From NCBI GenBank assembly GCA_041653835.1, contig JBAZEP010000001.1, forward strand, positions 19,082 to 83,081: a stretch of 64,000 nucleotides of DNA, read 5' to 3'. The translations under genes and the position numbers were made by a program. This DNA is from Candidatus Omnitrophota bacterium (GTDB lineage: Bacteria > Omnitrophota > Gorgyraeia > Gorgyraeales > Gorgyraeaceae). Below are positions 9,020-53,753 of this stretch, piece after piece; position 1 is the first letter of the stretch; every line of letters starts with the position of its first letter. The notes under the pieces are model-generated. The model saw only the letters and a list, made by a program, of their open reading frames with translations, searched no databases and was not told the DNA's origin.

Positions 9020-12000
9020 TTATAAATCAGTCGCGCGGTGCTTACCGTTCAATCCATTGTGGTTCTTGAGTATCGCGTTGGTACTGGGGTTTCCAAGCCA
9101 TATATCTCCTACCTTCCACGTAAGAGCGCAATCCTCTCTTTTAATTCCTTTCAATCTTACAAGATATACAGCTTGCCCATTATAAAAATGGGTCAATTCC
9201 AAAGGGATAGTCATCCATGCCGCGTTATCCGGGGTATCAGGAGAGGACAAGGCATTGGTCCTCACATACACCCTTGGCGGCTCTATGCCTGGGGCTATGC
9301 GCAGGTTAATGGATATATCTTCATAGCCGTCACTCAGATCCACCAGCATAGTATCTCCCAAAGAAGGGCTTACGCCGGAGATCTGAATGCCATAGACAGA
9401 AAGATTCACATTTGCGGCTGTCATAGCGTTATTGCGGGGCGCAAGTTCTATATCAAAGGTATCTTTTCCTTTTATTTCATCGCTCCACCACGCAAGATAC
9501 GCGGCCATTTCATTGAGAACATTCAGTTTCCGGCTTAATGGTATGGAATTCACTTCGGTCAAGGCATAAGCATTACGATCTCTATAATATAAGTCTATAT
9601 CTTTTTCCATCGCTTCCCAAAACGCCTGTTCTGTATTATCATAAGGCACTATCACATTGACGCCTACCTTGCCGTGAAGCTGGGTGCCGCCTTCTATCCA
9701 TGGAGCCGCCAGCTGTTTTCCGCCGTTGTCAGTAACAGCGGATTCTTTATATTCTTCCGCGCCTGTTCTTCTTCTTGAAACCTGGACCTGCAACTGTGTA
9801 GCCGCGAGAAGCACTCTTTGTTCATCCGGGGTAAACTTATCAACCAGGATAAACGTGCCCTTATAAACTGAATTATTTCCGTTTTTATTCTTGTCGTTTT
9901 CTATCTCTTCTGCCAATTCTTTCAGTTCTTTATAAACACGGATGCTCGGTTCATAAGGCTGAACATTGCCGAATATTATTACCTGGGCGCCTTCTTTTAC
10001 AGACCTTCTTATATTCTCTTTGGTAAATGCCTTTAGGTCTTCGGTGCCGCCTTGCTCAGGGTTGCCCTCTCCGATACCCAACTTCTCAGGAACACACCTC
10101 CCGCTATATGATATGATGAATTTTTCTGGGTCAATATCCAGATATCCTGAAATAATCAATGGCTTACCCCTCTTTTCTTTCAGCATATTTAACAGGCTTT
10201 CTTTCGCCTTCTTATCAGCGGATATCATTTGACCCACAGTAGGATGTTCTACATCCGCGCCAGGATACAATTCCAGCAATATTTTACGGAATTCTTTCGC
10301 CGATAGTTCCCGTAAGTCCCCGTTCGCTAGGCCGCGTAAAGGCCGCGCGTCAATATAACTCATTTCAAATGCCTGTATGCGTGAAACACCGCTGGGCATA
10401 TGGGATGTCCTTAACCCAACACTGCTGTCATCTACGATAATCTCTCCATTATCAAGTTTTCTTAGATAAAGGTAATGATATGCATCATCGATATACCTTT
10501 TATTTTTTAAGAATTCCCTCACCTCTTCGATAGACTTAAAATGTTTGAGCACCCTGTTATTATAAGTATGCGTGAAACCGGACACCGGTATTTTGGCCAA
10601 AGTTTTGTATTTCCCCGGATCTTTTTGATATAAAAATCTCCTGTAAAATGCGGCAGGAAGCACCTGGCCGTCGTGCAGGCTCAGTAAAACATCTTTCCAG
10701 CCTTTCTTCCCCATGGTTTTATCCGCCATTTCAGCCATCCTGTTTGTCAAAACAATGACCGCCGATGAGAAAAAATCCGTAAACTCATCCTGCGCAACCC
10801 TGCTGTCTTCCTGATCATATTTATAGAGCTTGCCCACATAATATCCATCTTTGTCGCGGACTAAATAATCCTCTATCTCAAATATCTCTATGTCTCCCTT
10901 TTCATTCGGCACTTCTATTTGTTTGATGCGCATATAAACTTCGCACTGAAGAGTTCTACCTCTAAATTCGACTTCCAGATCATCCATTATCTTTTTTCCT
11001 GGATCCTCATTAAAATCATTATAATAAGGCTCTGCCCACACCAATCTCGCTTTATCTTTTACAAAACGTTTTATGGCTACACTCTTGAAAACCGTAACCC
11101 TGCCAAGGCCTCCTGCCATGCGGGAAATCTCGGGCGCGGCAATAACAATGGTCTTTCCTATGATATTCTTCGCGTATTTCTCGAGCCACTCATCCGGTAT
11201 TTCGGACGACGGCTGTAAGGTAAGCCTGATAGTGTTAAATATAGGGTGGTTATAAAATTCTCCGGCCTTATTTCCAAGGCCATAATCTTTTTCAATATCA
11301 GAAATGTCTTCTATAAGTTTATTTTCCGAAGATTTGTCCATTGTGGAAATAGCGTCCCATATAGGATAATACGCCTCGACAGGATAATAAGACCAGAGTT
11401 TCTGGGCATGTTCTTCATAACCTAAAAGTATGGCCATAAGCTGGGACGGGCGGCCAAGCTTAGACATTATCTCTTTTCTTATATAGTCATAGTCATTACA
11501 CCATAGCGCCGCCTTTTGTTTTTGCGCTTTATTAAAAATCCCGTAAGACCCATTATCCTTTGTAACCAGGCCTGCCGCCGAGAGCTCATCCAGTAACCCC
11601 GCGACATATTCCGCGGAAAGCTTTACATCTTGTTTTAAAATTCCCAGGGCCTTCATCTCAGACTCAAGTTTTTCCTTTATCCCTTCGGCTGTCACAGAAC
11701 CTTTTCCTTTTAAAACCATATTTAAAGCCGCCTGGAGTTTTGACCACTTCGGCTCTGTCACGACCTGCCCGCTCCTGAGGAATAAAAGCGCGGCAGGGTC
11801 CATCATGCCCCTGGATAGTTTATCTTTTTCAATTACCCGGATATCCGCCCTGTAACGATTTTCCTTCAAATCAACGCAGAACGTATACATCTTCATGCTG
11901 TTACTGCCCGTCTCATCCTTCAGGTCGATCTCTATGATTTTCTCATACTCATCGACCACAGACTGCAGCTTCACCTCGACCTTCCCTTTATGATCTAAAA

Positions 12001-13876
12001 TTTCTTTTACCGTCTCTCTTACTTTTTTTGAGAATTCCGAAAAACCAGGAAAAAGTTTTTCACCTTCTTTCGCTAAATCCACATATTCCTGGCTTGCGTA
12101 CATAAAAGAAAGCGGATTCGGATACCCCTCTGCGGTCCCTGAATATTCCATAATGGAAATCCTTGACCTGTCTTTTTCCGGCAGGCTGAGCCACGCCATA
12201 TATACACCGAGATAATACGCCTTTAATTTATCTGGATTCCACTCCCCATTACTGTCTTTCCCTATGGCATTTATAATGGGCGCATACTGGCCTTCATCGT
12301 GGTCATCAAAAATTACCCATGAGGACTGATACTCCGGCAAACTCCATACCCTGGACCTGAGTAAATTCTGCAGCGTCTCAAAAGAAGTCTTGCCTCCATT
12401 CCCATTTCCGTATTTTTTCAATTCTTCATAAATCCCTGACGCGTCTTTTTTCGATTTTGAATATACAAAGTCCGCCTGAGGCACATGAGGAAAATATTCC
12501 CATTCCCCGATAATTCCAAGGCCAAGCATATGGGCGTTTTCCCAGACCTTATGTCCCTTATCGCCCAATCCTCCCATCTGATCGCACCTTATCCATTTGA
12601 CACCCAGATTCCTGAGCCTCCTCAAAAACCACGTCGCTAACGCAACTGTTTCATCCTTGGAGTAATCAAGTTTATTCGTCCATAGCCCTGCCTTATCGGC
12701 ATAGCACATATCCGGGAATGGGCGGCCTGCTGAGTCGCTTACCCCGGTATGCTCAAATACTACATCTACTATTATTTCTATACCGTTCTTCCTGGCCGCT
12801 TTTAGAAGTGATCTAAAATCCTCGTCAGTTCCATACCGCGGTTCAAAATATAAACCCGCGTACTCATACGGGCTTAACAAGGGCCCCATCACCTGCAGGC
12901 TTCCGGTAAGCTGTATGGCGTCATAACCCTTATACCTCGCGATATTATCCGCCAGCCATCTGAATTTATTCGTCCCGGATTCTGACTCCGCGTCGAGGTT
13001 TATCTGTCTTGTGATCTTTGGTTTTTTCTCAGGCGATTTTCCTTCTTCCAAAAATTCAGATTTATCCGCGATATGTTTTTTGACTCTTTTGATAAAAGCC
13101 GTCATCCTCCCATCCGCGCTTTTAATGCTTTCCAGGTACTCTATAAATTTCGCGGGTGACCCTATCATTGTGATATCCCCGCCGATTTCCGAGCCATCCT
13201 CCGGGATCTGATCTATGTACGCGATAAGATGCCTTACCAGGTCATAACGTAACGGGAATTCCTTCTGGAGTTCCATTTTTAATCCCCCGGCATTTTTCAA
13301 GGTTTTGGCCGCGGCTTTTAACTTATGGATATCACTGCCTTTCGCCGTATTGAATTTATTTATAAAAATCTTCAAATACCTGTCCGCGGACCTGTCATGC
13401 GTATCTTTCCCAGGTTTCAGTCTCGCGGCATGCTGCGCGATCTGATAAGCCTGCTGATGATTGTTATGGAAGTAGATGTATGCCGCGTAACTCATCAGCA
13501 GCCTGTAGAGCTGATCTTTGCTTGTCCCGATATTTTTCCCAAACGTGTCCACCAGGCCCGCGCTGAACGCGACAGGCTCTGCGCCTGCTGCCTCGCGCGC
13601 TTCTTCCATTTTCTTTCCCTGCTCTTCATAATTAACAGAAAAAATATCCTGGGCAAGGGCAAAGGCGGAATTTGGAACTGATAAGCCTCGCGCCGCGTTC
13701 AGCTGCCTGTCATAATTACTGCTTGAAGCAAGAGGCACTCTGAGAGCCTTGCCGTAAATATATACGCTATGAATACTTTTGTTGGAAATAGACCCAGGCC
13801 AAATCGCGAGAAAGGATGCCTGGATTAATACAGAGATGACTAACTTATTGAATATTTTATTCTTGCAAGCTGTCAT
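9020..13876 (-). CDS. Giant secreted multidomain alpha-glucan enzyme: GH13 alpha-amylase-family domain fused to an alpha-glucan phosphorylase/glycosyltransferase-like domain plus a C-terminal beta-rich module
   Basis: 1618 aa with an N-terminal signal peptide. GH13 regions are present: I DVVFEH, II GVKWIRCDQMG, III GEWEY, IV FDDHDE. Downstream lies a GGLGR motif (ISRMAGGLGRV) and ESAVTDNGGK, which resembles the EASGTxxMK PLP-lysine motif of GT35 glucan phosphorylases. The last ~150 aa look like a carbohydrate-binding module. Confidence 0.55.
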   Translation of the reverse strand: MTACKNKIFNKLVISVLIQASFLAIWPGSISNKSIHSVYIYGKALRVPLASSSNYDRQLNAARGLSVPNSAFALAQDIFSVNYEEQGKKMEEAREAAGAEPVAFSAGLVDTFGKNIGTSKDQLYRLLMSYAAYIYFHNNHQQAYQIAQHAARLKPGKDTHDRSADRYLKIFINKFNTAKGSDIHKLKAAAKTLKNAGGLKMELQKEFPLRYDLVRHLIAYIDQIPEDGSEIGGDITMIGSPAKFIEYLESIKSADGRMTAFIKRVKKHIADKSEFLEEGKSPEKKPKITRQINLDAESESGTNKFRWLADNIARYKGYDAIQLTGSLQVMGPLLSPYEYAGLYFEPRYGTDEDFRSLLKAARKNGIEIIVDVVFEHTGVSDSAGRPFPDMCYADKAGLWTNKLDYSKDETVALATWFLRRLRNLGVKWIRCDQMGGLGDKGHKVWENAHMLGLGIIGEWEYFPHVPQADFVYSKSKKDASGIYEELKKYGNGNGGKTSFETLQNLLRSRVWSLPEYQSSWVIFDDHDEGQYAPIINAIGKDSNGEWNPDKLKAYYLGVYMAWLSLPEKDRSRISIMEYSGTAEGYPNPLSFMYASQEYVDLAKEGEKLFPGFSEFSKKVRETVKEILDHKGKVEVKLQSVVDEYEKIIEIDLKDETGSNSMKMYTFCVDLKENRYRADIRVIEKDKLSRGMMDPAALLFLRSGQVVTEPKWSKLQAALNMVLKGKGSVTAEGIKEKLESEMKALGILKQDVKLSAEYVAGLLDELSAAGLVTKDNGSYGIFNKAQKQKAALWCNDYDYIRKEIMSKLGRPSQLMAILLGYEEHAQKLWSYYPVEAYYPIWDAISTMDKSSENKLIEDISDIEKDYGLGNKAGEFYNHPIFNTIRLTLQPSSEIPDEWLEKYAKNIIGKTIVIAAPEISRMAGGLGRVTVFKSVAIKRFVKDKARLVWAEPYYNDFNEDPGKKIMDDLEVEFRGRTLQCEVYMRIKQIEVPNEKGDIEIFEIEDYLVRDKDGYYVGKLYKYDQEDSRVAQDEFTDFFSSAVIVLTNRMAEMADKTMGKKGWKDVLLSLHDGQVLPAAFYRRFLYQKDPGKYKTLAKIPVSGFTHTYNNRVLKHFKSIEEVREFLKNKRYIDDAYHYLYLRKLDNGEIIVDDSSVGLRTSHMPSGVSRIQAFEMSYIDARPLRGLANGDLRELSAKEFRKILLELYPGADVEHPTVGQMISADKKAKESLLNMLKEKRGKPLIISGYLDIDPEKFIISYSGRCVPEKLGIGEGNPEQGGTEDLKAFTKENIRRSVKEGAQVIIFGNVQPYEPSIRVYKELKELAEEIENDKNKNGNNSVYKGTFILVDKFTPDEQRVLLAATQLQVQVSRRRTGAEEYKESAVTDNGGKQLAAPWIEGGTQLHGKVGVNVIVPYDNTEQAFWEAMEKDIDLYYRDRNAYALTEVNSIPLSRKLNVLNEMAAYLAWWSDEIKGKDTFDIELAPRNNAMTAANVNLSVYGIQISGVSPSLGDTMLVDLSDGYEDISINLRIAPGIEPPRVYVRTNALSSPDTPDNAAWMTIPLELTHFYNGQAVYLVRLKGIKREDCALTWKVGDIWLGNPSTNAILKNHNGLNGKHRATDL

Positions 13877-13957
13877 ATTAAAAATACCGGTGTGCCCTCT
13901 TTAGATAGGCTATATTATATGAAATCCATTGTAAAAGTAAAGGTTAAATATTGCCGA

Positions 13958-14884
13958 TTAGATGGCCTCCCTGAATCCCTTACCGCTTATATTAAACATA
14001 TCCTTTTTCTTTATAACTAGCCCTATCACATAACCTGATTCCGCGTCTATTATTTTGGTGATAGAAGCTATATTATTTAATTTTAAGCTCTTTACAAATT
14101 CCATTACCTTTAAAACTATTTCCTGGCTTTTTTCCAAATCGCGCTGTTCCGGAGGCATATAATCCATAAAAACCAGGTCGCCTCCGCCCGGCAGGATATC
14201 ATTCCATATCCTGCCGAAATGATAACCGAAAGAAACTTTTTCTCTTTCGCTATCATTCAATGCCATAAGGCTTTCATGGATATATATGGAAGTAATATAA
14301 AGCCACGTATTGTACAACAAAACGCCTGTTATTTTTTCCCCTGGTTTTAACTCTTCGTCCATGATCCTGCCTAAAAAATCATGCTTCAGGTAATTCCCTT
14401 TAAAAAACCTGCCGCCTGACGCGCCAAGAGGAGCATCATCCACATTAATAAAATTCCCCGCCATTACAGGATTGCCGCCGGAACCTAAATTCAGCACTAC
14501 ACTGCCTTTTCTCCACTCCGATCCATACCCTATTGAATTAAACATAGCCGCGGCATTATGAGATATTTCATCTTTATAAATATGGTCATTATGTTTCAAC
14601 AGGCTTATCCTGATACTCTTTGCCCCGGGATCAGACTTTTCCTGCTCAGATAAAACCAGGCGCATTTCATTATAATTGGAAGGATTTATCGGCACCCTTA
14701 AAGACATATCTTCTATATGTATGCTAAATATATTTTTATTGGAAGTGGCTACGGGATAGATCTGCCCGGAAAACAGGAACATCTGGGCTAATATAAGGGA
14801 TATTAATTTGACAAAGGTTTTATATTTATCATTCGTCATATTAAAAAACCCGGGCAAGTCTCTTGATTTAATATCCTCTGCCAT
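13958..14884 (-). CDS. Hypothetical protein, with a Gly-rich VLNLGSGGNP motif of possible methyltransferase type
   Basis: 308 aa with an N-terminal hydrophobic segment. The only motif is weak similarity to class I SAM-binding motif I, so there is no confident family. Confidence 0.3.
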   Translation of the reverse strand: MAEDIKSRDLPGFFNMTNDKYKTFVKLISLILAQMFLFSGQIYPVATSNKNIFSIHIEDMSLRVPINPSNYNEMRLVLSEQEKSDPGAKSIRISLLKHNDHIYKDEISHNAAAMFNSIGYGSEWRKGSVVLNLGSGGNPVMAGNFINVDDAPLGASGGRFFKGNYLKHDFLGRIMDEELKPGEKITGVLLYNTWLYITSIYIHESLMALNDSEREKVSFGYHFGRIWNDILPGGGDLVFMDYMPPEQRDLEKSQEIVLKVMEFVKSLKLNNIASITKIIDAESGYVIGLVIKKKDMFNISGKGFREAI

Positions 14885-15050: not shown

Positions 15051-15599
15051 TTATTTGGAAAGTGTTATGGACTGCTGAGATTGATATTTGCCTTTACGAT
15101 CAGCGTAAGTAACATCGCATTGCTCGTCTGATTCAAAAAAAACTACCTGGCCAATGCCTTCATTGGCGTAAAGCTTCGCGGAAGCGGCTGATGTATTGCT
15201 TATGGCTATGGTCAGATACCCTTCCCAGGACGGCTCGAGAGGAGTAACATTCACTATCACGCCGAGCCTGGCATATGTGCTCTTGCCGGTACATAGCGCC
15301 AGAACATTCGGCGGCATTTTAAAATATTCCAGCGACCTGGCAAGGATAAAAGAATTCGGGGGGATCGCGCATACAGCGCCTTTAAAATCTTCGAACAACC
15401 CGGGATTGATATTTTTGGGATCGGTTATGTCTTTACCCGAGCCTTTGAATATCTTAAATTCATCGGCTATCCTTATGTCATAGCCGTAACTGGAAAGGCC
15501 GAATGAAATATTGTTTTTCTTGACCTGGTCCGGCTCGAACGGCTTTATCATGTCATATTCCAAAGCCATTTTTTTGATCCAGGAGTCAGCTTTCAGCAT
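15051..15599 (-). CDS. dcd: dCTP deaminase
   Basis: Carries the [10 protein letters not shown] motif and a Dcd/dUTPase-fold C-terminus. Start was chosen at [10 protein letters not shown] (15599) instead of the ORF-track 15662, which would run into nrdJ. Confidence 0.88.
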
Positions 15600-17905
15600 T
15601 TGGAATATCCGCAGGAACGGCAGACCACACAGCCTTCTTCGTGCCTGAGCGCGGCGCCGCAATCAGGGCACACGCCGACTACGGTACCGAGTTTATCCTC
15701 TATCATAGTATGGGGGGAATGCTTTTCCATATCCTCTTCCACGTGATGCATCTTGCCGTTGCCAAGCCTTAATTCCAGGACCCTGGCTATGGCGTCCGAG
15801 CACGAAAAAATCCTTCCGCTTTTCTCCCACGACGGGGACGGGCATCTTATGCCCCTTAGCTGTTCTATTATTTTACTATTTTCCACCCCGGAGCGGAGCG
15901 CCAGGGATACGAGCCTCCCTATGGCCTCAAGCTGGCTCGCCGCGCATCCGCCTGCCTTACCCATCTGTATGAAGACCTCGAAAGGCAAAGACCTGTCATC
16001 CACATTTATGGTGATATAAAGATTGCCGCACCCTGTCGCGACTTTCGTGGTGGTACCGTTGGTAACGACAGGCCTCGGACGAGGCGCCACGCTTTTCTTT
16101 TCCGCGGTATCGGCCGCCGCGGACGCCGCCCTTGTCTCTTTCTTCGTAGAATCACTGGAATTGATATTAAGCACTTGTTCCTCCCTGCTCTTGTCCCTGT
16201 ATATGGTCACACCTTTGCATCCTAATTTGAAAGCCAGCATATACACCTCTTTCACGTCGTCTTTAGAGGCGTCATGCGGGAAATTAACGGTCTTGGATAC
16301 CGCGTTATCGGTATATTTCTGGAACACGGCCTGCATCCTTATGTGCCAGAGAGGCGCTATGTCATGGGAAGTAACGAATATCTTTTTATATTTTTCCGGT
16401 ACCGCGTCTATGTCCCTGATCGACCCTTTTTCAGCGATCTCTTCCATAAGTTTCCTGGAATAAAATCCTTCTTTCCTGGCAATCTCCTCAAACAATCCGT
16501 TGACCTCGATAAGTTTGTCATTGTCCATCACGTTCCTGTAATACGACAACGCGAATAACGGTTCTATCCCGCTCGAGGAATTGGAGATTATCGATATCGT
16601 GCCTGTAGGCGCGATCGTCGTAAGAGTGGCGTTCCTTAATCCTTCCGCGCCTTTTTTGCCGTATATGCTTTCTTTGAATCCGGTAAAAGCGCCTCTTTTT
16701 TTGGAAAGCTCCTCCGATTTTACCCTGGCTTCATCCAATACGAATTTCATTATTTTTTCACCGAGCCGGACAGCCTCCTCGCTATTATAAGGTATCTCGA
16801 GTTTTATAAGCATATCCGCCCATCCCATTACCCCAAGCCCTATCTTCCTGTTGGTCCTGGTCATCTTTTCTATTTCCGGCAGGGGGAATTTATTCATATC
16901 TATAACATTGTCTAGAAAATGGACTCCCGAATGAACAAGTCCCTTTAACGCCGCCCAATCAACTTCTTTTTTGCCGTCTTCCCCGCGCACAGCCCTGGCT
17001 AAATTCACAGATCCGAGATTACAGCTTTCGAAAGGTAAAAGAGGCTGTTCGCCGCATGGGTTCGTGCTTTCTATTTCCCCAAGCGCCGGGGTAGGATTGT
17101 CTTTGTTTATCCTGTCGACGAACACGATCCCGGGTTCCCCGTTCTTCCAGGATAATTCCACTATCAGGTCAAAGACCTCCCTGGCATTCATCTTCCTGAC
17201 CTCTTTTTTATTGTGGGGGTCTACCAACGAATATTCCTCGCCGGCTATGACCTTGTTCATGAAATCTTCGGTAATAGCTATCGAGATATTGAAATTCGTT
17301 ATTTCCTTGTCATTCTCTTTGCACCTGATAAATTCCATTATATCAGGATGGTCGACGCGCAGGATGCCCATATTGGCGCCGCGCCTGGTCCCGCCCTGCT
17401 TGACCGCCTGCGTAGCGGCGTTGAACACCTTCATGAAAGATACAGGCCCGCTCGAAACCCCGCCCGTGGACCGCACAACACTGTTTTTGGGCCTGAGCCT
17501 CGAAAAACTAAAACCTGTGCCGCCGCCGCTTTTGTGGATCATCGCGGTATTTTTTATCGCGTCAAAAATGGATTCCATGGAATCGCCCACGGGAAGGACA
17601 AAACACGCGGAGAGCTGGCCCAGCTCTTTTCCCGCGTTCATAAGCGTGGGTGAGTTGGGCATAAATTCGAAACTCGACATGATCTCATAAAATCTATTCT
17701 CCGTCTCTTTTATTTCCTGGCTGGAGGCGCCGTACGCTTTGTCCGCCTTCGCTATATATCGGCTCACTCTCCTGAACATGCCCTCGGGTGTCTCGATGAC
17801 TTTTCCGTCCTTGTCTTTCATGAGATATCTTCTTTCCAAAACCTTGAGGCAATTCTCCGAGATGTTCAGTTTCTTTTCGACCTTGGTCTTCAATTCCATT
17901 ATCAA
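15593..17905 (-). CDS. nrdJ: Adenosylcobalamin-dependent ribonucleotide reductase, class II, with C-terminal zinc ribbon
   Basis: 770 aa. The active-site region reads NPCGEQPL...CNLGSVNL. The C-terminus carries CPDCG...CVVCRSCG. Confidence 0.9.
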
Positions 17906-47304: not shown

Positions 47305-48690
47305 TTAGAAGTCTATTTGCGCCCTCATGCCGCCGATAAATATACTGCTTGTATCATCTTCGACATCCTTTCCAAACGGATTCCATATATACTGGACATC
47401 CGGGCTGACGGATAGATGATTATTGACGTATATCCTGTAATACGTTTCCAGATGGCCCTCTGCCGCAGCCCTTGGGCTGGCAACGGAAGATGTGCCGATT
47501 TTTTTATAGTCATTGGATGGATATACCTGGCCTGCCGCGAAACCAAGAACATCTTTTTCCCTGCCCCATGATTTACCTTCCAATTGCAACCCGGCACTCC
47601 ATGACTGTTCCAGTGAGTATTCAAAACTATCCGCCGCAGCTTTGGTATTCGGGTTATATACTTTCGGATTCTGCCAGCCGTAACGGCAGAATAACGTAGC
47701 GATATCATTAGCCTTCTGGTCGAAACTTAAACCAAAACCATAGCTGTCTTCTTTCTGAGCGGAGGAGTCGTGCCATTTAGTATGAGCGGCGCTGTTGTTC
47801 CAGCCATATAACCTGTAGTTCCCCGGCTGGTTAAACAAGTTTGCCTTAAAAGTAACCTGGGCTATATTAAAAAGATTATCCCCTATCTTTTCCCAGTCGC
47901 CGTCCGCGTCTAAAATGCCGTATCCTAATTCAATGCACCCGTCCGGTATATAAGCTATGCGGATACCCGCTGTATTGTCCGGAAATTCCACCACAGGGGA
48001 ATTTCTGAATATCCTGCCAAGAAACTGGGTTGTCTCGTCATTGGCTATTTCGTTATTGTCAAAATAAATTGTGGGGTCTATTTTCCCGAAAACCGCCGCT
48101 GCTTTATCATTGAGTAAAACCTGTTCATACCAGAGTTCCGTAACCTGCACGTTTTCCGAGTCGCTCGCATCACGGTTAACATCACTATATAGGGTCAGGT
48201 TGTCTTCCAGGCCCGCGCCCTTACCCGCTTCAAGATGTAAAAAAGCTTTTCCGCCGGTTTCTTCGAATTCTTTACCTATAGTAATGTCTGTTGAATAGGA
48301 CGCGTCGGTCCTGGATTCTTTTTTGGTCACCCCGCTTGTAGCGTCATTGGTATTATTCGTTCCCTGGACTACCATAGTGGCGCCGACGCCTATTTCAAGG
48401 CCTTCCGCGATAGGTATGGGGACGCCTTCCTGCCTGTGCAAAGCCGTGCCAAACTCGCTTAGCTTTGATTCATACTCGGCGATTTTTTTATCCTGTTCAA
48501 GGATACATCTTTGCTGGTCCTCCATACATTTATCCTGTTTATTTAATCTTTCCTCCAAAATCTGGATGCGTGTCTTCAGTTTATCAATCTCATTCCTTAT
48601 GGGATTATCCTCAGCGAAAGAATTATTCCCAGCTAAAAATAAAAACACAATGGCAGTTAGGGCAATTTTTTTAAAACCCATCTTGAACAT
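47305..48690 (-). CDS. Outer-membrane porin with N-terminal coiled coil (OprB/carbohydrate-porin-like), candidate nickel/cobalt uptake porin
   Basis: Signal peptide MFKMGFKKIALTAIVFLFLAGNNSFA, then a ~70-aa coiled coil, then a beta-barrel ending in Phe. Start was moved to MFKM. It lies between nikR and cbiM. Confidence 0.5.
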   Translation of the reverse strand: MFKMGFKKIALTAIVFLFLAGNNSFAEDNPIRNEIDKLKTRIQILEERLNKQDKCMEDQQRCILEQDKKIAEYESKLSEFGTALHRQEGVPIPIAEGLEIGVGATMVVQGTNNTNDATSGVTKKESRTDASYSTDITIGKEFEETGGKAFLHLEAGKGAGLEDNLTLYSDVNRDASDSENVQVTELWYEQVLLNDKAAAVFGKIDPTIYFDNNEIANDETTQFLGRIFRNSPVVEFPDNTAGIRIAYIPDGCIELGYGILDADGDWEKIGDNLFNIAQVTFKANLFNQPGNYRLYGWNNSAAHTKWHDSSAQKEDSYGFGLSFDQKANDIATLFCRYGWQNPKVYNPNTKAAADSFEYSLEQSWSAGLQLEGKSWGREKDVLGFAAGQVYPSNDYKKIGTSSVASPRAAAEGHLETYYRIYVNNHLSVSPDVQYIWNPFGKDVEDDTSSIFIGGMRAQIDF

Positions 48691-48760
48691 TATCTTCCTC
48701 CTTTCCACTTTTATTGCTACTTTTTTTAAATTCGTGCCACCATAGTACAAAAAAATAATA

Positions 48761-49252: not shown

Positions 49253-49287
49253 AAGTTACATTTGTGACACTGTCACAAATGTAACTT
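49253..49287. repeat. Core-palindrome element copy 3: stem AAGTTACATTTG/CAAATGTAACTT around TGACACTGTCA
   Basis: Lies between the large glycoside-phosphorylase-like gene (stop overlapped) and nikR. It is the third occurrence of the identical 11-nt core inside an unrelated perfect 12-bp stem. Confidence 0.7.
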
Positions 49288-52200
49288 AGGAGAGATGGGC
49301 GTCTATTCTTTTTATTTTTCGGGTTCTTATGTCCAGGGCGTACGGCGGGTTTATTATGTCTCCCTGGATGTCTATTTTTCTTCCATCGTCGTATTCCAAT
49401 GTCATGGAAGTTATCCTCGCGGAATTTTTACCTGCGGTATTTTTCATTTCGGGATTGTGGTAAACTACGAGGGTTTTACCTAAAAATTTGAACGCGTATG
49501 TATTTTTTGGAAAGCCTTTGGAGGCCTTTTTCGTAAAAAGCCTTGACGGCAGCGCCGGGCTGAACCTCAGGCTTAACCCGTGTTTTTCATTTACGAAAAA
49601 CGGATTCCTGCCAGCGCTCATGACCAGCCATATATTCAGCATTTCCGCGGTAGAACCGCTCAGGCGCGCGACAAAACCCCTGCCGTGCATCTCAGGCTCG
49701 GGAAAAGCGCTGGAAACTATAAAAGAAGAATTCTCGAAGACGCTTCTCCCATATCTCCCGGGCTTTTGGAACGGGATCAGGACATTTTCGAACTCCGCGA
49801 AAAAGTCCTCATAAAGCCCTTTTTTCAATATCTCGAGCAGGTATTTATATTCCATGTGGAGCCATATTGATTCGTTTTCCAGCCAGCCCGGGGTAAATAT
49901 GGTGGAGCGGCCCGCTTCTTTGGATACATCTTCCAGGGATTCATTGATCCTGTACATCTTTAATTTGACGTCGTACAATCCGGTCTTTTTGAGAGAGTCA
50001 TACAATGCCTTTGCTTTTCCGGCGTCAGATTCGGTCTTCAACGCCCTTACGGGCCCTTCCAGGAACAGGGGCAGCCTTATACTCTTGAATTCCGTCGGCC
50101 TTACCAGGGGAAGGCCTTTTACGGGATCCTGCCTGCCCAATAACTCATATTTCACGACCTCATTTATAAAATATGTGGTGTACGCTTTTTTAGCCGGGTC
50201 ATACGCCTTCGCGGCCGCGCTGTCCGCCTTCAAAAGGAACCTGTCCAGCGCGGTCCTCAATTCCCCGGCGTTCATGGTTTTTTCTCTTCCGCTGAATCCG
50301 AGTTTTGTTCTATGCCTGTATTCTTCTTTGGCGGAATTGGACTTGTCCCAATAATTAAAATCGCTGCCGTCTTCTTTTATCGCATCCTCCAGATTTTTTA
50401 TGAACTCATGCAGTTCTTCCGGGAGATTAATGGTCAAACAATCATCTATATCGAGCTTTTTAAAGGCATTCAGTATGAATACAAGCTGGCGTTTCAATTC
50501 AAAGACCTCGGGAACCGAGGAACCGCAAAGCCCGGGCAGGCCGTTCATGGAATCGCACCAGCCCGGCTTATCAGCCTCCATTTCAATGCCTATGCCGGAC
50601 GGGTCGAGCGAAGATATCTTGTTTGCCGCGACGCAAAGCATCTTTACCAGGAGCGAAACCTTGTAAATATCCCCTTCCCCGTTATTCATCCGCATCGCGT
50701 GGGGATCGACAACGCGCTGTTTTATCAGATGGGTCTTTTTGGCGTCATGCTCCAGCGAATGGTATTGCCTTACAACACCCTCGCTCTTTAGAAGATATCT
50801 CCCTGAACGAGGTTTCACACAGAACATGTTGTCATAAAAGGTAAATTCTTTCTTATCCAGGAATATTTCTTTTAACTTATCGGGGTATACCCCCAGATAA
50901 CTTTCTACCAGATCCAGATTATAAGTCCAATGATCCACCCAATACCCTTCCCCGTGTTCCGCATCATAGATAATAACACAGTTTTTTGACAGGATATCGA
51001 GTAATTCGCGCCAGGATATTTTTAATTTTATGCCTTGCTTCTCTATTTCCATAAATAAGCTGCCGGGCGTAAACTCCGCGGACAGGGCAGGCTCTAATTT
51101 TTCGATATCAGCCGCGCTCATACTGTCTTTAAGCGCTGCCCTTAACGCCCCGGGGTCTTTCAACTTGAACTTTACCCCCCTTAAGACCAGCGGGTTATAT
51201 CCGTCCGACTGTATAAGGTTATAGAAATACAGTATATTGAAGTCCTTTATATCCGGGTCAAAGAATACATCGCTCCTGCGGTTCTGGTTTATATCCCTGT
51301 AGTTGCCGTCGCCCTGCGAAAAATAAGCCGGCTCTATCGAAAACTTATTGTAATCCCTTTCTAGATCCCCGTGTTTGCGCGAATACACATAAAACGCGTA
51401 GGTGTGGGCATTGGAACATGTCAGGGGTATCCCGCCCCTTATCACGTTGTCCAGGAATGCCTGGCCGCAATATGTATCGTACCTTTCATCCGCGCTCGCG
51501 GTAAAGATATTACCCCGGATCTCATTTATTATATTTTTATTCTCTTCTCTTTTCTCCGAGAAAAACTGTTCCGTTGACAGGATAGGGAGGAAAGAATTCA
51601 ATTTATCCTTCGAGCTCATGTGGCCCGATATGGCGTTGACTTTGATCTCTTCGCCCTTCCCGAGCTTAAAAGCCGCGTAAGCCATGGCGCTGGGCAATTT
51701 ATTCCGGTTCATCTGGTTCTTTGGTATCTTGAACCTGGCGGCGTCAACAAAATTAACAGGGTATGAAAAATCCGTTATATTATCGAATATCGCTTCCGGA
51801 TCTACCACGACAGGGAGCGGCCTTCCTGAAACAGAAGAGAGATAAAAATTCCCCTCTTCCACGAACTTGACCTCTGAGGCATCCTTGGGATCGACCTTTA
51901 ACCTGTAAAAAGGCGCGTTGCGCTCCAGGTTCTCCACCACCATCCATGCCTCGATAGTGCGCCTCATTTTTTGCAGAAAGAAATTGGAAGTGCCGTAAGG
52001 GATTATAAGAGGGGCACCGTCCAGCATTTCGCAGGAGATATCTTTTTTGGAGATATTCCTGATGGTAACTATCCTGGCAAGCCCGGCGAAAGGCTGGTTC
52101 GGTATCGTAAAATATTTTACCTCCACGCTCAAACCCAGAGTGGAGTTTATTTCCTCGATCCTCAGCTCATGCCCGCTGACGAACATGCGCTGTTTTATGA

Positions 52201-52528
52201 CGGCGTCTGTCTCACCCGAATAGGATTTGAAAGGCTCGTAGAAAATCCCGGCCTTACCCTTTTTGAGCTTCAAAAATGTGCGAAAACCCTGCGACGAGAC
52301 CAGCTGGTACGCCCTGTTCGCCGGGAAAAATTCCATTATCGAGCTGTCTTTGCCTTTTATCCCGAAACTACAGACAGCCTGCCCGCGGTTCACGTAGAAA
52401 ACCCACATGGGTATGCCGAATAACCCGGCTATCCCCGGAAGGAAATTGGAAAAAGTCCCTGCTAAATTATAATTCTCTATAACAAATTCGTTATTCGAAT
52501 CTATATAATATTTTACCTTTTTGTCCAT
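49286..52528 (-). CDS. Large (~1080 aa) glycoside hydrolase/phosphorylase-like protein, family unassigned (possibly GH94-type beta-glucan phosphorylase)
   Basis: Size and N-terminal beta-sandwich-like region followed by a long helical region are consistent with (alpha/alpha)6-barrel glycoside phosphorylases, and it is adjacent to GH5. No catalytic motif could be verified by eye. Start was moved to MDKKVKYY to remove the overlap with GH5. Confidence 0.35.
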   Translation of the reverse strand: MDKKVKYYIDSNNEFVIENYNLAGTFSNFLPGIAGLFGIPMWVFYVNRGQAVCSFGIKGKDSSIMEFFPANRAYQLVSSQGFRTFLKLKKGKAGIFYEPFKSYSGETDAVIKQRMFVSGHELRIEEINSTLGLSVEVKYFTIPNQPFAGLARIVTIRNISKKDISCEMLDGAPLIIPYGTSNFFLQKMRRTIEAWMVVENLERNAPFYRLKVDPKDASEVKFVEEGNFYLSSVSGRPLPVVVDPEAIFDNITDFSYPVNFVDAARFKIPKNQMNRNKLPSAMAYAAFKLGKGEEIKVNAISGHMSSKDKLNSFLPILSTEQFFSEKREENKNIINEIRGNIFTASADERYDTYCGQAFLDNVIRGGIPLTCSNAHTYAFYVYSRKHGDLERDYNKFSIEPAYFSQGDGNYRDINQNRRSDVFFDPDIKDFNILYFYNLIQSDGYNPLVLRGVKFKLKDPGALRAALKDSMSAADIEKLEPALSAEFTPGSLFMEIEKQGIKLKISWRELLDILSKNCVIIYDAEHGEGYWVDHWTYNLDLVESYLGVYPDKLKEIFLDKKEFTFYDNMFCVKPRSGRYLLKSEGVVRQYHSLEHDAKKTHLIKQRVVDPHAMRMNNGEGDIYKVSLLVKMLCVAANKISSLDPSGIGIEMEADKPGWCDSMNGLPGLCGSSVPEVFELKRQLVFILNAFKKLDIDDCLTINLPEELHEFIKNLEDAIKEDGSDFNYWDKSNSAKEEYRHRTKLGFSGREKTMNAGELRTALDRFLLKADSAAAKAYDPAKKAYTTYFINEVVKYELLGRQDPVKGLPLVRPTEFKSIRLPLFLEGPVRALKTESDAGKAKALYDSLKKTGLYDVKLKMYRINESLEDVSKEAGRSTIFTPGWLENESIWLHMEYKYLLEILKKGLYEDFFAEFENVLIPFQKPGRYGRSVFENSSFIVSSAFPEPEMHGRGFVARLSGSTAEMLNIWLVMSAGRNPFFVNEKHGLSLRFSPALPSRLFTKKASKGFPKNTYAFKFLGKTLVVYHNPEMKNTAGKNSARITSMTLEYDDGRKIDIQGDIINPPYALDIRTRKIKRIDAHLS

Positions 52529-52541
52529 TGGGGTAATTTTA

Positions 52542-53753
52542 TCAGATACGCCCGAAACTGGCAAGTAAATTAGCAAGAGGCTCGTTCTTTTTGAAGCCTT
52601 CGGTCTTCCATGACCCTATTATGGCGTTTTTATGCCCTTTCCAGAGAGTATAAAAATTCTCAAAACCGTAAACAGGCCCCTGGCGGCTGATCCATGGCGG
52701 ATTTGCCGTATATTGGTATATGCCGTCCGGAAATACGCTGTTGGAGACTGCCTTATATGTCCAATATGTCCAATGAAATCCGAACTCCTTAAAGCATTCC
52801 AGCGTATCCCTGACCCATTCGAGCTCACCGGAGCATTTTCCGCATCTCGAGTTCACTCCGAACTCGCCCGCGAAAACCGGCACATTCCATTTCTTGGAAT
52901 AACCGTGGTATGTTCCAAGTATCTCTTTTATTTTTTTAAAATTCCATGTTTCGCCGTTAATCCTGCCCGGGTAGCTGAGGTCCCTGTGAAAATTAAAAGT
53001 AAACTCCAAGGGATGATAAAAATGGATGCTGTAAGAAAGATTATCCGCGAACGGCTCGCCTATGTCTTCCAGGCGTTGTGACCATATATTGCCTTCCAGG
53101 AATATGATGTGCCCGCTATCCACCGCCCTTATCCGTTTTACAGCCTCTTTATAGAACGGCCTCAGTATTCCAGCGCCGCCTTTTTTTATGACAGGCTCAT
53201 TCAATATATTGTAACCCGCAACACCCTCTTCGCCTTTAAAATTCTCCGCCAACTCTTCCCATAACCTGTAATAACGTTCGCGGCATTTTTTATCTTTCCA
53301 TAAGGACATTTCGCCGTCGCTGTCCGCGTGCCAATCCTGGTTCTGCGAGCCAGGCGCGGCGTGCATGTCCAGGATACAGTAAATATCACGTTTCTTGCAC
53401 CATGAAACAGCTTTTTTCAAGAGGCCGATGCCGTTCTTATTTATAGAATGATTTTTGTCCTGATTCTCTATGAGTTTATGATTAAAGGGGAGGCGGACGC
53501 AGTTAAAACCAAGATTCGCTATATTTTTAAAATCCTCTTCTTTTATAAAATTATTCCTGAACTCTCTGGTAAAATTCTCCAGTTCTTTACCGCCCCAGCG
53601 CCTTGCCATCTCAGCTTTGAACGATTTCTCGGATATATTCCTGCCGTAAAGTATATACCCCTCCATCATAAGCCATCCGCCAAGGTTCACGCCGCGGAGA
53701 ATGATCTTTTTGCCCATAGAATCTATTATGGCGCTATCTTTTGTCTTTAACAT
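52542..53753 (-). CDS. Glycoside hydrolase family 5 (beta-glycanase/cellulase-like)
   Basis: The GH5 acid/base motif NILNEP is present, together with a second conserved glutamate region (FAGEFG) and GVNLGGWL near the N-terminus. Confidence 0.7.
   Translation of the reverse strand: MLKTKDSAIIDSMGKKIILRGVNLGGWLMMEGYILYGRNISEKSFKAEMARRWGGKELENFTREFRNNFIKEEDFKNIANLGFNCVRLPFNHKLIENQDKNHSINKNGIGLLKKAVSWCKKRDIYCILDMHAAPGSQNQDWHADSDGEMSLWKDKKCRERYYRLWEELAENFKGEEGVAGYNILNEPVIKKGGAGILRPFYKEAVKRIRAVDSGHIIFLEGNIWSQRLEDIGEPFADNLSYSIHFYHPLEFTFNFHRDLSYPGRINGETWNFKKIKEILGTYHGYSKKWNVPVFAGEFGVNSRCGKCSGELEWVRDTLECFKEFGFHWTYWTYKAVSNSVFPDGIYQYTANPPWISRQGPVYGFENFYTLWKGHKNAIIGSWKTEGFKKNEPLANLLASFGRI

Follow-up and report, generated by a model that had tools for sequence, protein, structure and literature searches.

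The stretch of DNA analyzed here, 64,000 nucleotides (nt) of contig JBAZEP010000001.1 from a Candidatus Omnitrophota bacterium and referred to below as the window, contains on its minus strand an open reading frame (ORF) for a protein of 1618 amino acids (aa). We suggest that this protein makes or remodels alpha-glucans and that it combines a GH13 domain and a GT5-like module with a GT-B fold behind a putative leader for export, an explanation that we consider moderately probable when taken as a whole. In the mechanism envisioned, the GT-B module would extend an alpha-1,4 chain with glucose taken from a nucleotide sugar, and chains would be cut and transferred, or trimmed, by the GH13 domain of the same polypeptide.

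A single conserved polypeptide

The original prediction had described one ORF of 1618 codons at positions 9020-13876, and its coordinates and length proved correct; reading of the sequence places an in-frame stop codon eight codons upstream of the ATG. The same protein is deposited at NCBI from a Candidatus Omnitrophota metagenome-assembled genome (P0001), where it starts at M90, comprises 1529 aa, and is named only 'alpha-amylase family glycosyl hydrolase'. A word-indexed protein search, which returned four proteins, provided orthologues from other samples, P0002 (1629 aa) and P0003 (1647 aa), that are 67% identical and keep the full architecture; since both possess it, the fusion is not an artefact of assembly or of a frameshift. 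With P0004 (2392 aa), only the leader, the region preceding the GH13 domain and the GH13 domain itself are shared, at 50% identity. A three-sequence profile found no relevant match in the PDB and, in a word-indexed search, a single homologue. The 1618-aa ORF is one genuine, conserved protein of an Omnitrophota bacterium.

The GT-B module and its relation to GT5 and GT35 enzymes

The AlphaFold model of residues 880-1475, computed from an alignment of 27 sequences, attains a pLDDT of 88 and a pTM of 0.91 and exhibits the strand-helix pattern of the GT-B fold. When it was compared with the PDB by Foldseek, GT5 synthases and GT35 phosphorylases appeared interleaved (E 1e-15 to 5e-19). The best match was the GT5 starch synthase IV of Arabidopsis (SSIV; 6gne; E 5e-19, target template-modelling (TM) score 0.75), and further GT5 matches comprised GBSS (6gnf, 3vue), P. 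abyssi GS (3fro) and A. tumefaciens GS (1rzu); the many phosphorylase matches had E values of 1e-18 to 1e-15 and query TM scores of about 0.66. As judged from this model, the module is a member of the glycogen synthase/phosphorylase GT-B superfamily.

Profile comparisons distinguish between the two families more sharply. The Pfam model PF08323 was detected in 49 of the 63 relatives scanned (22/27, 18/23 and 9/13; best E 2e-21), and PF00343 matched neither the query nor any of these 63 relatives. A PDB search with a profile of the GT-B family retrieved four GT5 synthases (E 9e-4 to 0.02), one match that was weak and unrelated, and no GT35 chain. When the family alignment of 122 sequences was compared by hhalign with E. 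coli GlgA, the probability was 91-96% over 422-437 columns that span GlgA completely; with E. coli GlgP it was 76-83%, over the C-terminal half only, and the N-terminal half of the module aligned to GT5 alone. The module hence appears nearest to the GT5 starch/glycogen synthases and not to the GT35 phosphorylases. The designation 'phosphorylase/synthase-like' in the original prediction thus holds at the level of the fold, where Foldseek finds GT5 and GT35 alike; its phosphorylase part does not, as the profiles match GT5.

The residues that stand out in the module are E916, G922-G923-L924-G925-R926, D1069, Q1071, H1103, R1260, K1265, F1348, E1375, E1378 and G1396-G1397. Within the 122 sequences, E916 (GlgA E9), G922-G923-L924 (GlgA G17-G18-L19) and the Arg-x4-Lys phosphate clamp formed by R1260 and K1265 (GlgA R300 and K305) are 100% conserved, as are H1103 and E1378. 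D1069 (GlgA D137) is conserved in 99% and G1396-G1397 (GlgA G399-G400) in 95% of the family, and the counterpart of the adenine-stacking Y355 of GlgA, F1348, is aromatic in 105 of 122 members. H1103 probably corresponds to H161 of GlgA, the hhalign column lying one off, on V160.

The catalytic loop varies in a reciprocal manner. It reads T-E-A-A-G in 83 of the 122 sequences and T-G-A-x-E in the other 39, among them the query (E1375), and no sequence has both forms or neither. Every member therefore has a glutamate at position 1372 or 1375, so that a catalytic-loop Glu is always present; the pattern suggests that the catalytic glutamate has shifted by three residues, its loss at one site being compensated at the other.

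The lysine that binds pyridoxal phosphate (PLP) in E. coli GlgP, K662 of the segment TEASGTSNMK, aligns by hhalign to A1380, and the 122 relatives have D (83) or N (31) in this column and not a single K. The motifs GGLGR (922-926) and ESAVTDNGGK (1378-1387) do occur where the original prediction had placed them, but the latter cannot be taken for a PLP-lysine motif: K1387 lies seven residues past the aligned column, in a position occupied by L (76) or I (36) in 112 of 122 sequences and by K in three. Modelling substantiated a GT-B fold, and in the alignment an alanine occupies the column of the PLP lysine that had been looked for with it. The invariant E1378 and the D or N at the former PLP-lysine position would, we infer, suit a pocket for ribose better than one for PLP.

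The likeness to the GT5 synthases (GlgA, SSIV 6gne, GBSS 3vue/6gnf, 3fro) extends over the GT-B fold, the full-length profile alignment, PF08323, the GGL loop, the (H/N)D motif, the His of the HN motif, the Arg-x4-Lys clamp, the aromatic residue at the adenine-stacking position, the catalytic-loop Glu, and the C-terminal GG. The module differs from them in being about 120 residues larger, in the adaptor of about 190 aa ahead of it, in its location inside large modular proteins behind a leader, in lacking the KXGGL lysine, in having Arg for Asp after the GGLG loop, and in the two positions of its Glu. With the GT35 enzymes (E. coli GlgP, rabbit muscle GP) it shares the fold superfamily, comparable Foldseek scores, the Arg-x4-Lys clamp, and the motifs GGLGR(L/V), ND(T/G)(H/Q), T(N/T)HT and TEA(S/A)G; it differs from them in the D, N or A of the PLP column, in the missing PF00343 match, in an N-terminal half that does not align, and in the lack of a long N-terminal regulatory region. 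Written out for the family, E. coli GlgP and E. coli GlgA in turn, the four motifs are GGLGRV, GGLGRL and GGLADV; ND.Q, NDTH and HDWH; TTHT, TNHT and TVHN; and TEAAG, TEASG and FEPCG.

A divergent GH13 domain

In a Pfam scan of the whole protein, PF00128 was the only model reported (28.4 bits; threshold 22), and it covered residues 345-379 only. A profile of four sequences spanning residues 291-700 matched 258 GH13 chains in the PDB, the best of them 3dhu (E 1.4e-7). All four conserved regions of the family can be assigned: region I as DVVFEH (371-376), region II as WIRCDQ (R430, D432), region III as GEWE (E458) and region IV as FDDHDE (H526, D527). Region I aligns significantly to PDB chains; below the threshold, WIRCD432QMGG was aligned to FRCDTAKH of Ruminococcus bromii Amy4 (9qf3) and FDDHD527E to LENHDN of 3dhu, and region III was identified by eye. 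No substitution occurs at D371, H376, R430, D432, E458, H526 or D527 among the three full-length proteins, nor in P0004, which is only 50% identical. Residues 291-690 accordingly read as a very divergent GH13 domain with an intact catalytic Asp/Glu/Asp triad, one that is probably still catalytic, and the GH13 assignment with its four regions made in the original prediction can be upheld. When the profile was compared with E. coli GlgB and GlgX, only the neighborhood of region I aligned, and no GH13 subfamily or specificity can therefore be assigned. Among the family proteins compared, the region ahead of the domain (residues 95-290) is common to P0001, P0002, P0003 and P0004 only.

The leader, the LRVP box and the start codon

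The N-terminus comprises a basic start (K5, K7, K11), a hydrophobic core of 15 residues (L12-W26) and then P27-G28; S-I-S|N is a possible cleavage site. By hydropathy, residues 8-30 contain the only hydrophobic segment of the entire protein, and the flanking charge is +4 on its N-terminal side versus +1 on its C-terminal side. Such a short core together with the charge bias would be in keeping with a Sec signal or a signal anchor whose N-terminus stays inside the cell.

The first 60 or so residues align among the query, P0002 and P0003, with K7, I8, L45, R46, V47 and P48 invariant. The leader also occurs in front of other proteins. Those of the 1618-aa protein and of its 308-aa upstream neighbor show 41% identity across 59 aa (E 1e-8), and a hidden Markov model (HMM) of the leader matches P0004, P0006 and P0010, all of them differently built downstream, as well as a 644-aa ORF located directly after P0004 that was not part of the training set (E 3e-5). 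In an alignment of seven leaders, L45, R46 and P48 are invariant; six have V at position 47, and P0004 has I. What emerges is a leader family, attached to otherwise unrelated proteins, that consists of a basic start, a hydrophobic core of 15-17 aa, a Pro, some 15-20 aa and an LR(V/I)P box. Leader-bearing genes adjoin each other in two genomes. The box might serve as a processing site or as a sorting signal. A search of a large protein database with the leader profile returned only a 69-aa fragment.

M90, the start codon of the NCBI record, has a purine-rich stretch just upstream, and M1 has none at normal spacing. As a true start M90 is nevertheless ruled out at the protein level, because the orthologues, proteins of other architecture and the product of the adjacent gene all conserve residues 1-60. 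The position of a promoter-like site upstream of the first ATG weakly favors the upstream start; the count of such sites in the region is not above the shuffled expectation. The public record hence begins 89 residues too late, and it leaves about 1000 residues without annotation. The signal peptide proposed in the original prediction thus has the expected appearance and a translation backed by conservation, and the concern voiced there, namely that a better start codon might lie downstream of the hydrophobic N-terminus, found a candidate in M90 that this same conservation overrules.

The rest of the 308-aa neighbor, after its leader, has no match in Pfam, NCBIfam or the PDB. Its reading as a methyltransferase dependent on S-adenosylmethionine (SAM), from a VLNLGSGG motif seen by eye, found no support in these three databases and was not used.

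A mobile module in large modular proteins

An exhaustive HMMER search for relatives of the module gave 259 clusters (50% identity) at E <= 1e-3, of which 193 had E <= 1e-30. The best 150 of the 259 were listed, and the matches were not individually classified. So limited a number of matches argues for a clade set sharply apart, with ordinary GT5 synthases falling below the threshold. The relatives listed are mostly 800-7335 aa in length, with a few shorter fragments, and the module is found at varied positions within them. In 140 of the 153 family proteins listed, the adaptor of about 190 aa directly precedes the module of about 595 aa, and the mobile unit is therefore adaptor plus GT-B. Sequence comparison in this way defines a mobile module that is reused in at least 259 clusters, mostly of large modular proteins.

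Compared with Pfam and the PDB, the adaptor gave only winged-helix matches below the threshold, and these for its central part. It does not represent the N-terminal extension of a GT35 enzyme, as it shows no likeness to the N-terminus of GlgP (probability 0.4%). The C-terminal module (residues 1476-1618) has no match in Pfam or the PDB, so that its interpretation as a starch-binding domain is a guess without support from either. The original prediction had called it beta-rich; that it is a separate module is confirmed, and its richness in strands is seen only in a low-confidence model of residues 880-1618 (alignment of four sequences; pLDDT 40).

Among the family proteins listed, GH13 is a partner only in the present orthologue group and in P0004. 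Other partners also point to alpha-glucans: GH77 4-alpha-glucanotransferase, GDE_C amylo-1,6-glucosidase, PPDK_N with a PEP-utilising domain, and an Ig domain of the glucan-water-dikinase type. These repeated fusions to alpha-glucan enzymes support an alpha-glucan as the substrate of the module. Additional partners are PFK, PGI, PfkB, ROK, an APH-type kinase, glpX FBPase and UDP-glucose dehydrogenase, as well as radical SAM, response-regulator receiver, GNAT and glutamate dehydrogenase domains. All five members with a taxon label belong to the Omnitrophota; the taxonomic range of the family rests on these five labels, and a scan of a genome collection with four sequences returned two loci. To call an exported chimera of this kind unusual, as the original prediction did, is an overstatement, since hundreds of large modular proteins have the module following a leader of similar type, those with a taxon label being Omnitrophota, and a preprint had already noted GT5 domains in proteins of this kind.

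The GT-B module constitutes a well-populated clade with mixed GT5/GT35 motifs and a Glu swap, which may merit a family or subfamily of its own.

Comparison with known systems

The fungal alpha-1,3-glucan synthase Ags1/Mok1 has the same order of an N-terminal leader, a GH13 domain and a GT5-type synthase in one polypeptide. Chain synthesis in Ags1 is the task of the GT5 domain; its GH13 domain is believed to link chains to one another by transglycosylation (PMC12305055). The 1618-aa protein is bacterial and differs from Ags1 in having neither a transmembrane segment between the two domains nor a C-terminal multi-pass channel; since no such segment separates them, its GH13 and GT-B domains cannot face opposite sides of a membrane. 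The likeness to Ags1 is one of architecture only. By analogy, the domain logic may be compared to a GlgA fused with a GH13 transferase, or to Ags1 minus its membrane channel.

For the Archaeovorins, the giant Omnitrophota proteins, the preprint by West-Roberts et al. 2023 (10.1101/2023.11.21.568195) gives glycosyl transferases as the second most common domain class, with GT5 the most prevalent among them. The likenesses between these giants and the 1618-aa protein include the phylum, a GT5-like module, an N-terminal signal-like region, the fusion of sugar enzymes for which a place outside the cell is predicted, and neighboring genes of a pilus or type II secretion-like kind. The latter differs in its length of only 1618 aa, in its lack of HEAT or TPR repeats and in the absence of a transmembrane segment past the leader, and no mention of a GH13 partner was found in the parts of the preprint that were consulted. 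A GT5-like module in Omnitrophota giants was thus known already from the preprint, and so was the combination of GH13 with GT5 in fungi. New are, in our view, a bacterial GH13 plus GT5-like fusion without membrane parts, a family of adaptor plus module with mixed GT5/GT35 motifs and a glutamate swap, the refutation of the PLP reading, the LRVP leader family, and the corrected start.

Chlamydia is a lineage of the PVC superphylum, and the Omnitrophota are placed with the PVC group. Chlamydia secretes GlgA, GlgB, GlgP, GlgX, MalQ and phosphoglucomutase into the inclusion and uses UDP-glucose imported from the host (PMC4829429). Common to both systems would be GT5 and GH13 glycogen enzymes outside the organism's own cytoplasm; the chlamydial enzymes differ in that they are separate proteins with type III signals and canonical enzyme sequences.

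Cellular location and alternative explanations

Several observations weigh against an exported alpha-glucan synthase. PF08323 scores marginally on the GT-B module of the query alone (23.2 bits versus a threshold of 22.7) and went unreported in the scan of the whole protein. The lysine of the GT5 KXGGL motif (K15) is replaced, by M920 in the query and by A, P, L or E across the family, and the column of GlgA E377 is G1372 in the query, where the Glu follows three residues later. The motifs GGLGR, ND.Q, T.HT and TEA(A/S)G are closer to GT35 than to GT5, so that the family placement is not clean. Region I is the only GH13 region with a significant alignment, a Sec-type leader conflicts with the need for a nucleotide sugar, and no glgC or other glycogen gene was found in the annotated parts of the window.

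With respect to location, 130 proteins of the family have complete N-termini, and in 89 of them a strongly hydrophobic window lies within the first 60 or so residues. The N-terminal flank carries more positive charge than the C-terminal one in 88 of these 89 (medians +4 versus 0), and 72 of the 89 lack any other transmembrane-like segment. The charge bias and the single segment are such that standard rules place these polypeptides outside the cytoplasm. At odds with export is the fact that many of the leader-bearing relatives carry domains dependent on ATP, SAM, NAD or acetyl-CoA. We lean somewhat towards a leader that really directs export.

West-Roberts et al. 2023 (10.1101/2023.11.21.568195) report glycolytic domains with a predicted extracellular location and leave their localization unsettled, and a 2026 preprint reports signal peptides or transmembrane helices in 94% of long Omnitrophota proteins. 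According to the two preprints, large Omnitrophota proteins chain cytoplasmic-looking enzymes behind signal peptides, and the side of the membrane on which they work is left undecided. The 1618-aa protein is a compact, conserved case with one leader, two recognizable enzymes and no other membrane segment; its size would permit expression, assays and fusion to topology reporters, and it makes this topology puzzle testable.

Possible, albeit unlikely, is that no export takes place at all: either M90 would be the true start or the hydrophobic N-terminus would tether the protein at the cytoplasmic face, and the protein would be an intracellular, bifunctional glycogen enzyme. This explanation would agree with the NCBI call of M90 and the purine-rich stretch, fit for ribosome binding, that precedes it, with the cytoplasmic nature of nucleotide-sugar chemistry, and with sister proteins whose radical SAM, receiver, PFK, GNAT and UDP-glucose dehydrogenase domains need cytoplasmic cofactors. 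It has to contend with residues 1-60 being conserved not only in orthologues but also in proteins of other architecture and in the neighboring gene, with a hydrophobic core of just 15-17 residues that is followed by Pro, and with the basic N-flank of 88 of 89 family leaders, for which standard rules put the bulk of the protein outside.

About equally unlikely is a second alternative, by analogy with Chlamydia, in which the protein would be an exported effector that acts on or inside the cell of a host or of prey, or else in a shared compartment, where it would build or loot glycogen with nucleotide sugars of the host. The Sec-type leader and the pilus or type II secretion-like locus three genes downstream could be so explained, and giant Omnitrophota genes are reported beside loci of this type, with a predatory lifestyle inferred for the phylum (10.1101/2023.11.21.568195). 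A precedent is provided by the secreted glycogen enzymes of Chlamydia that use imported UDP-glucose (PMC4829429; PMC9251005); these, however, travel by type III secretion and not with Sec leaders, and the receiver and radical SAM domains of the sister proteins are hard to fit.

For the GT-B module itself, nucleotide-sugar synthase activity is slightly favored. Another transferase activity or a PLP-independent phosphorylase is rather unlikely, and a module without any catalytic activity is improbable. GH13 enzymes are common in the periplasm and on the cell surface. A non-catalytic, glucan-binding or scaffolding GT-B domain in what would be merely such a surface or periplasmic amylase would suit the loss of K15 and the Gly in the E377 column, but we regard it as decidedly improbable: R1260, K1265, H1103, E1378 and the GGL loop are 100% conserved over 122 divergent relatives, the query has every invariant residue, and one or the other of two positions always retains a Glu. 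Invariance of the presumed phosphate-binding and catalytic residues is a pattern typical of an active enzyme. That the second domain is a PLP-dependent GT35 alpha-glucan phosphorylase fused to an amylase is highly improbable in spite of the Foldseek matches, the hhalign result for the C-terminal half of GlgP and the four shared motifs, since GT35 catalysis requires covalently bound PLP (PMC11046441) and the lysine for it is absent.

Returning to the exported alpha-glucan enzyme, we consider as a tentative and rather unlikely extension that adaptor plus GT-B might be a new glycosyltransferase family between GT5 and GT35, with an N-lobe like that of the synthases and active-site motifs like those of the phosphorylases but working without PLP, that is sent out together with GH13 and other enzymes for extracellular alpha-glucan metabolism. 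If true, such metabolism would take place inside the cell of a prey or host or in some shared compartment, in parallel to but independently of Chlamydia, and the single-leader protein of 1618 aa would be its smallest tractable model.

Genomic context and coordinates of features

Downstream of the 1618-aa gene and on the same strand follow gpmA, a gene for a small membrane protein resembling mechanosensitive channels, and genes for a GspK/LTD pseudopilin-like protein, an Ig-domain protein and a PilM-PilN fusion; the pilus or type II secretion-like cluster lies three genes downstream, and in the preprint cited above giant Omnitrophota genes are reported near such loci. Upstream are the leader-bearing 308-aa ORF, dcd, ribonucleotide reductase (domains taken from a syntenic orthologue) and a Bat operon. 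The P0003 genome (Hainich groundwater) has the same gene order minus the 308-aa gene, and the genomic context of P0005 was uninformative. The coordinates are compiled in Table 1.

Table 1. Features of the 1618-aa protein and its surroundings; positions refer to the window unless a locus is named.
Feature	Position	Strand	Basis or remark
Whole ORF, 1618 aa plus stop codon, ATG start	9020..13876	-	Orthologues (67%) share the architecture
Putative Sec-type leader, residues 1-31	13784..13876	-	Hydropathy peak at residues 8-30
LRVP box, residues 45-48, invariant core of the leader family	13733..13744	-	Alignment of seven leaders
Leader through LRVP box	13733-13876	-	Member of the leader family
Alternative start M90 of NCBI record P0001	13607..13609	-	Purine-rich stretch just upstream
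Conserved region ahead of GH13, residues 95-290	13007..13594	-	No Pfam match
Divergent GH13 domain, residues 291-690 (catalytic about 300-600, conserved tail about 600-690)	11807..13006	-	PF00128 and profile
Predicted GH13 catalytic residue D432	12581-12583	-
Predicted GH13 catalytic residue E458	12503-12505	-
Predicted GH13 catalytic residue D527	12296-12298	-
Adaptor region, residues 691-879, N-terminal partner of the GT-B module	11240..11806	-	Family comparison
GT-B module, GT5-like, residues 880-1475	9452..11239	-	AlphaFold, Foldseek, PF08323, hhalign
Glu swap site, residues 1372-1376	9749-9763	-
C-terminal module, residues 1476-1618	9023..9451	-	Follows the GT-B module in 7 of the 153 family proteins listed
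Promoter-like site, TTTACT, 16 nt, TATAAT	13914..13941	-	38 nt upstream of the ATG at 13876
Upstream neighbor ORF, 308 aa, probable start M16	13958..14884	-	Paralogous leader and LRVP box
Leader-family gene in locus L006	7966-9900 (L006)	+
dcd ORF, 203 aa, TTG start	15051-15662	-
GspK-like pseudopilin with lamin-tail domain, 1057 aa	4044-7217	-
Ig-domain protein, 615 aa	2187-4034	-
PilM-PilN fusion protein	216-1739	-
OprB carbohydrate porin gene	47305-48750	-	Together with the next two
ORF of 1096 aa, TTG start as listed	49286-52576	-	No Pfam match
GH5 cellulase	52542-53753	-	No obvious signal peptide

Elsewhere in the window, the gene for an OprB carbohydrate porin indicates a cell with an outer membrane. 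It lies together with a 1096-aa ORF and a GH5 cellulase gene, which overlap by 35 nt. The dcd ORF, as delimited in Table 1, overlaps the ribonucleotide reductase gene by 70 nt; since its orthologue in locus L003 has 173 aa, the real dcd start is probably located further downstream.

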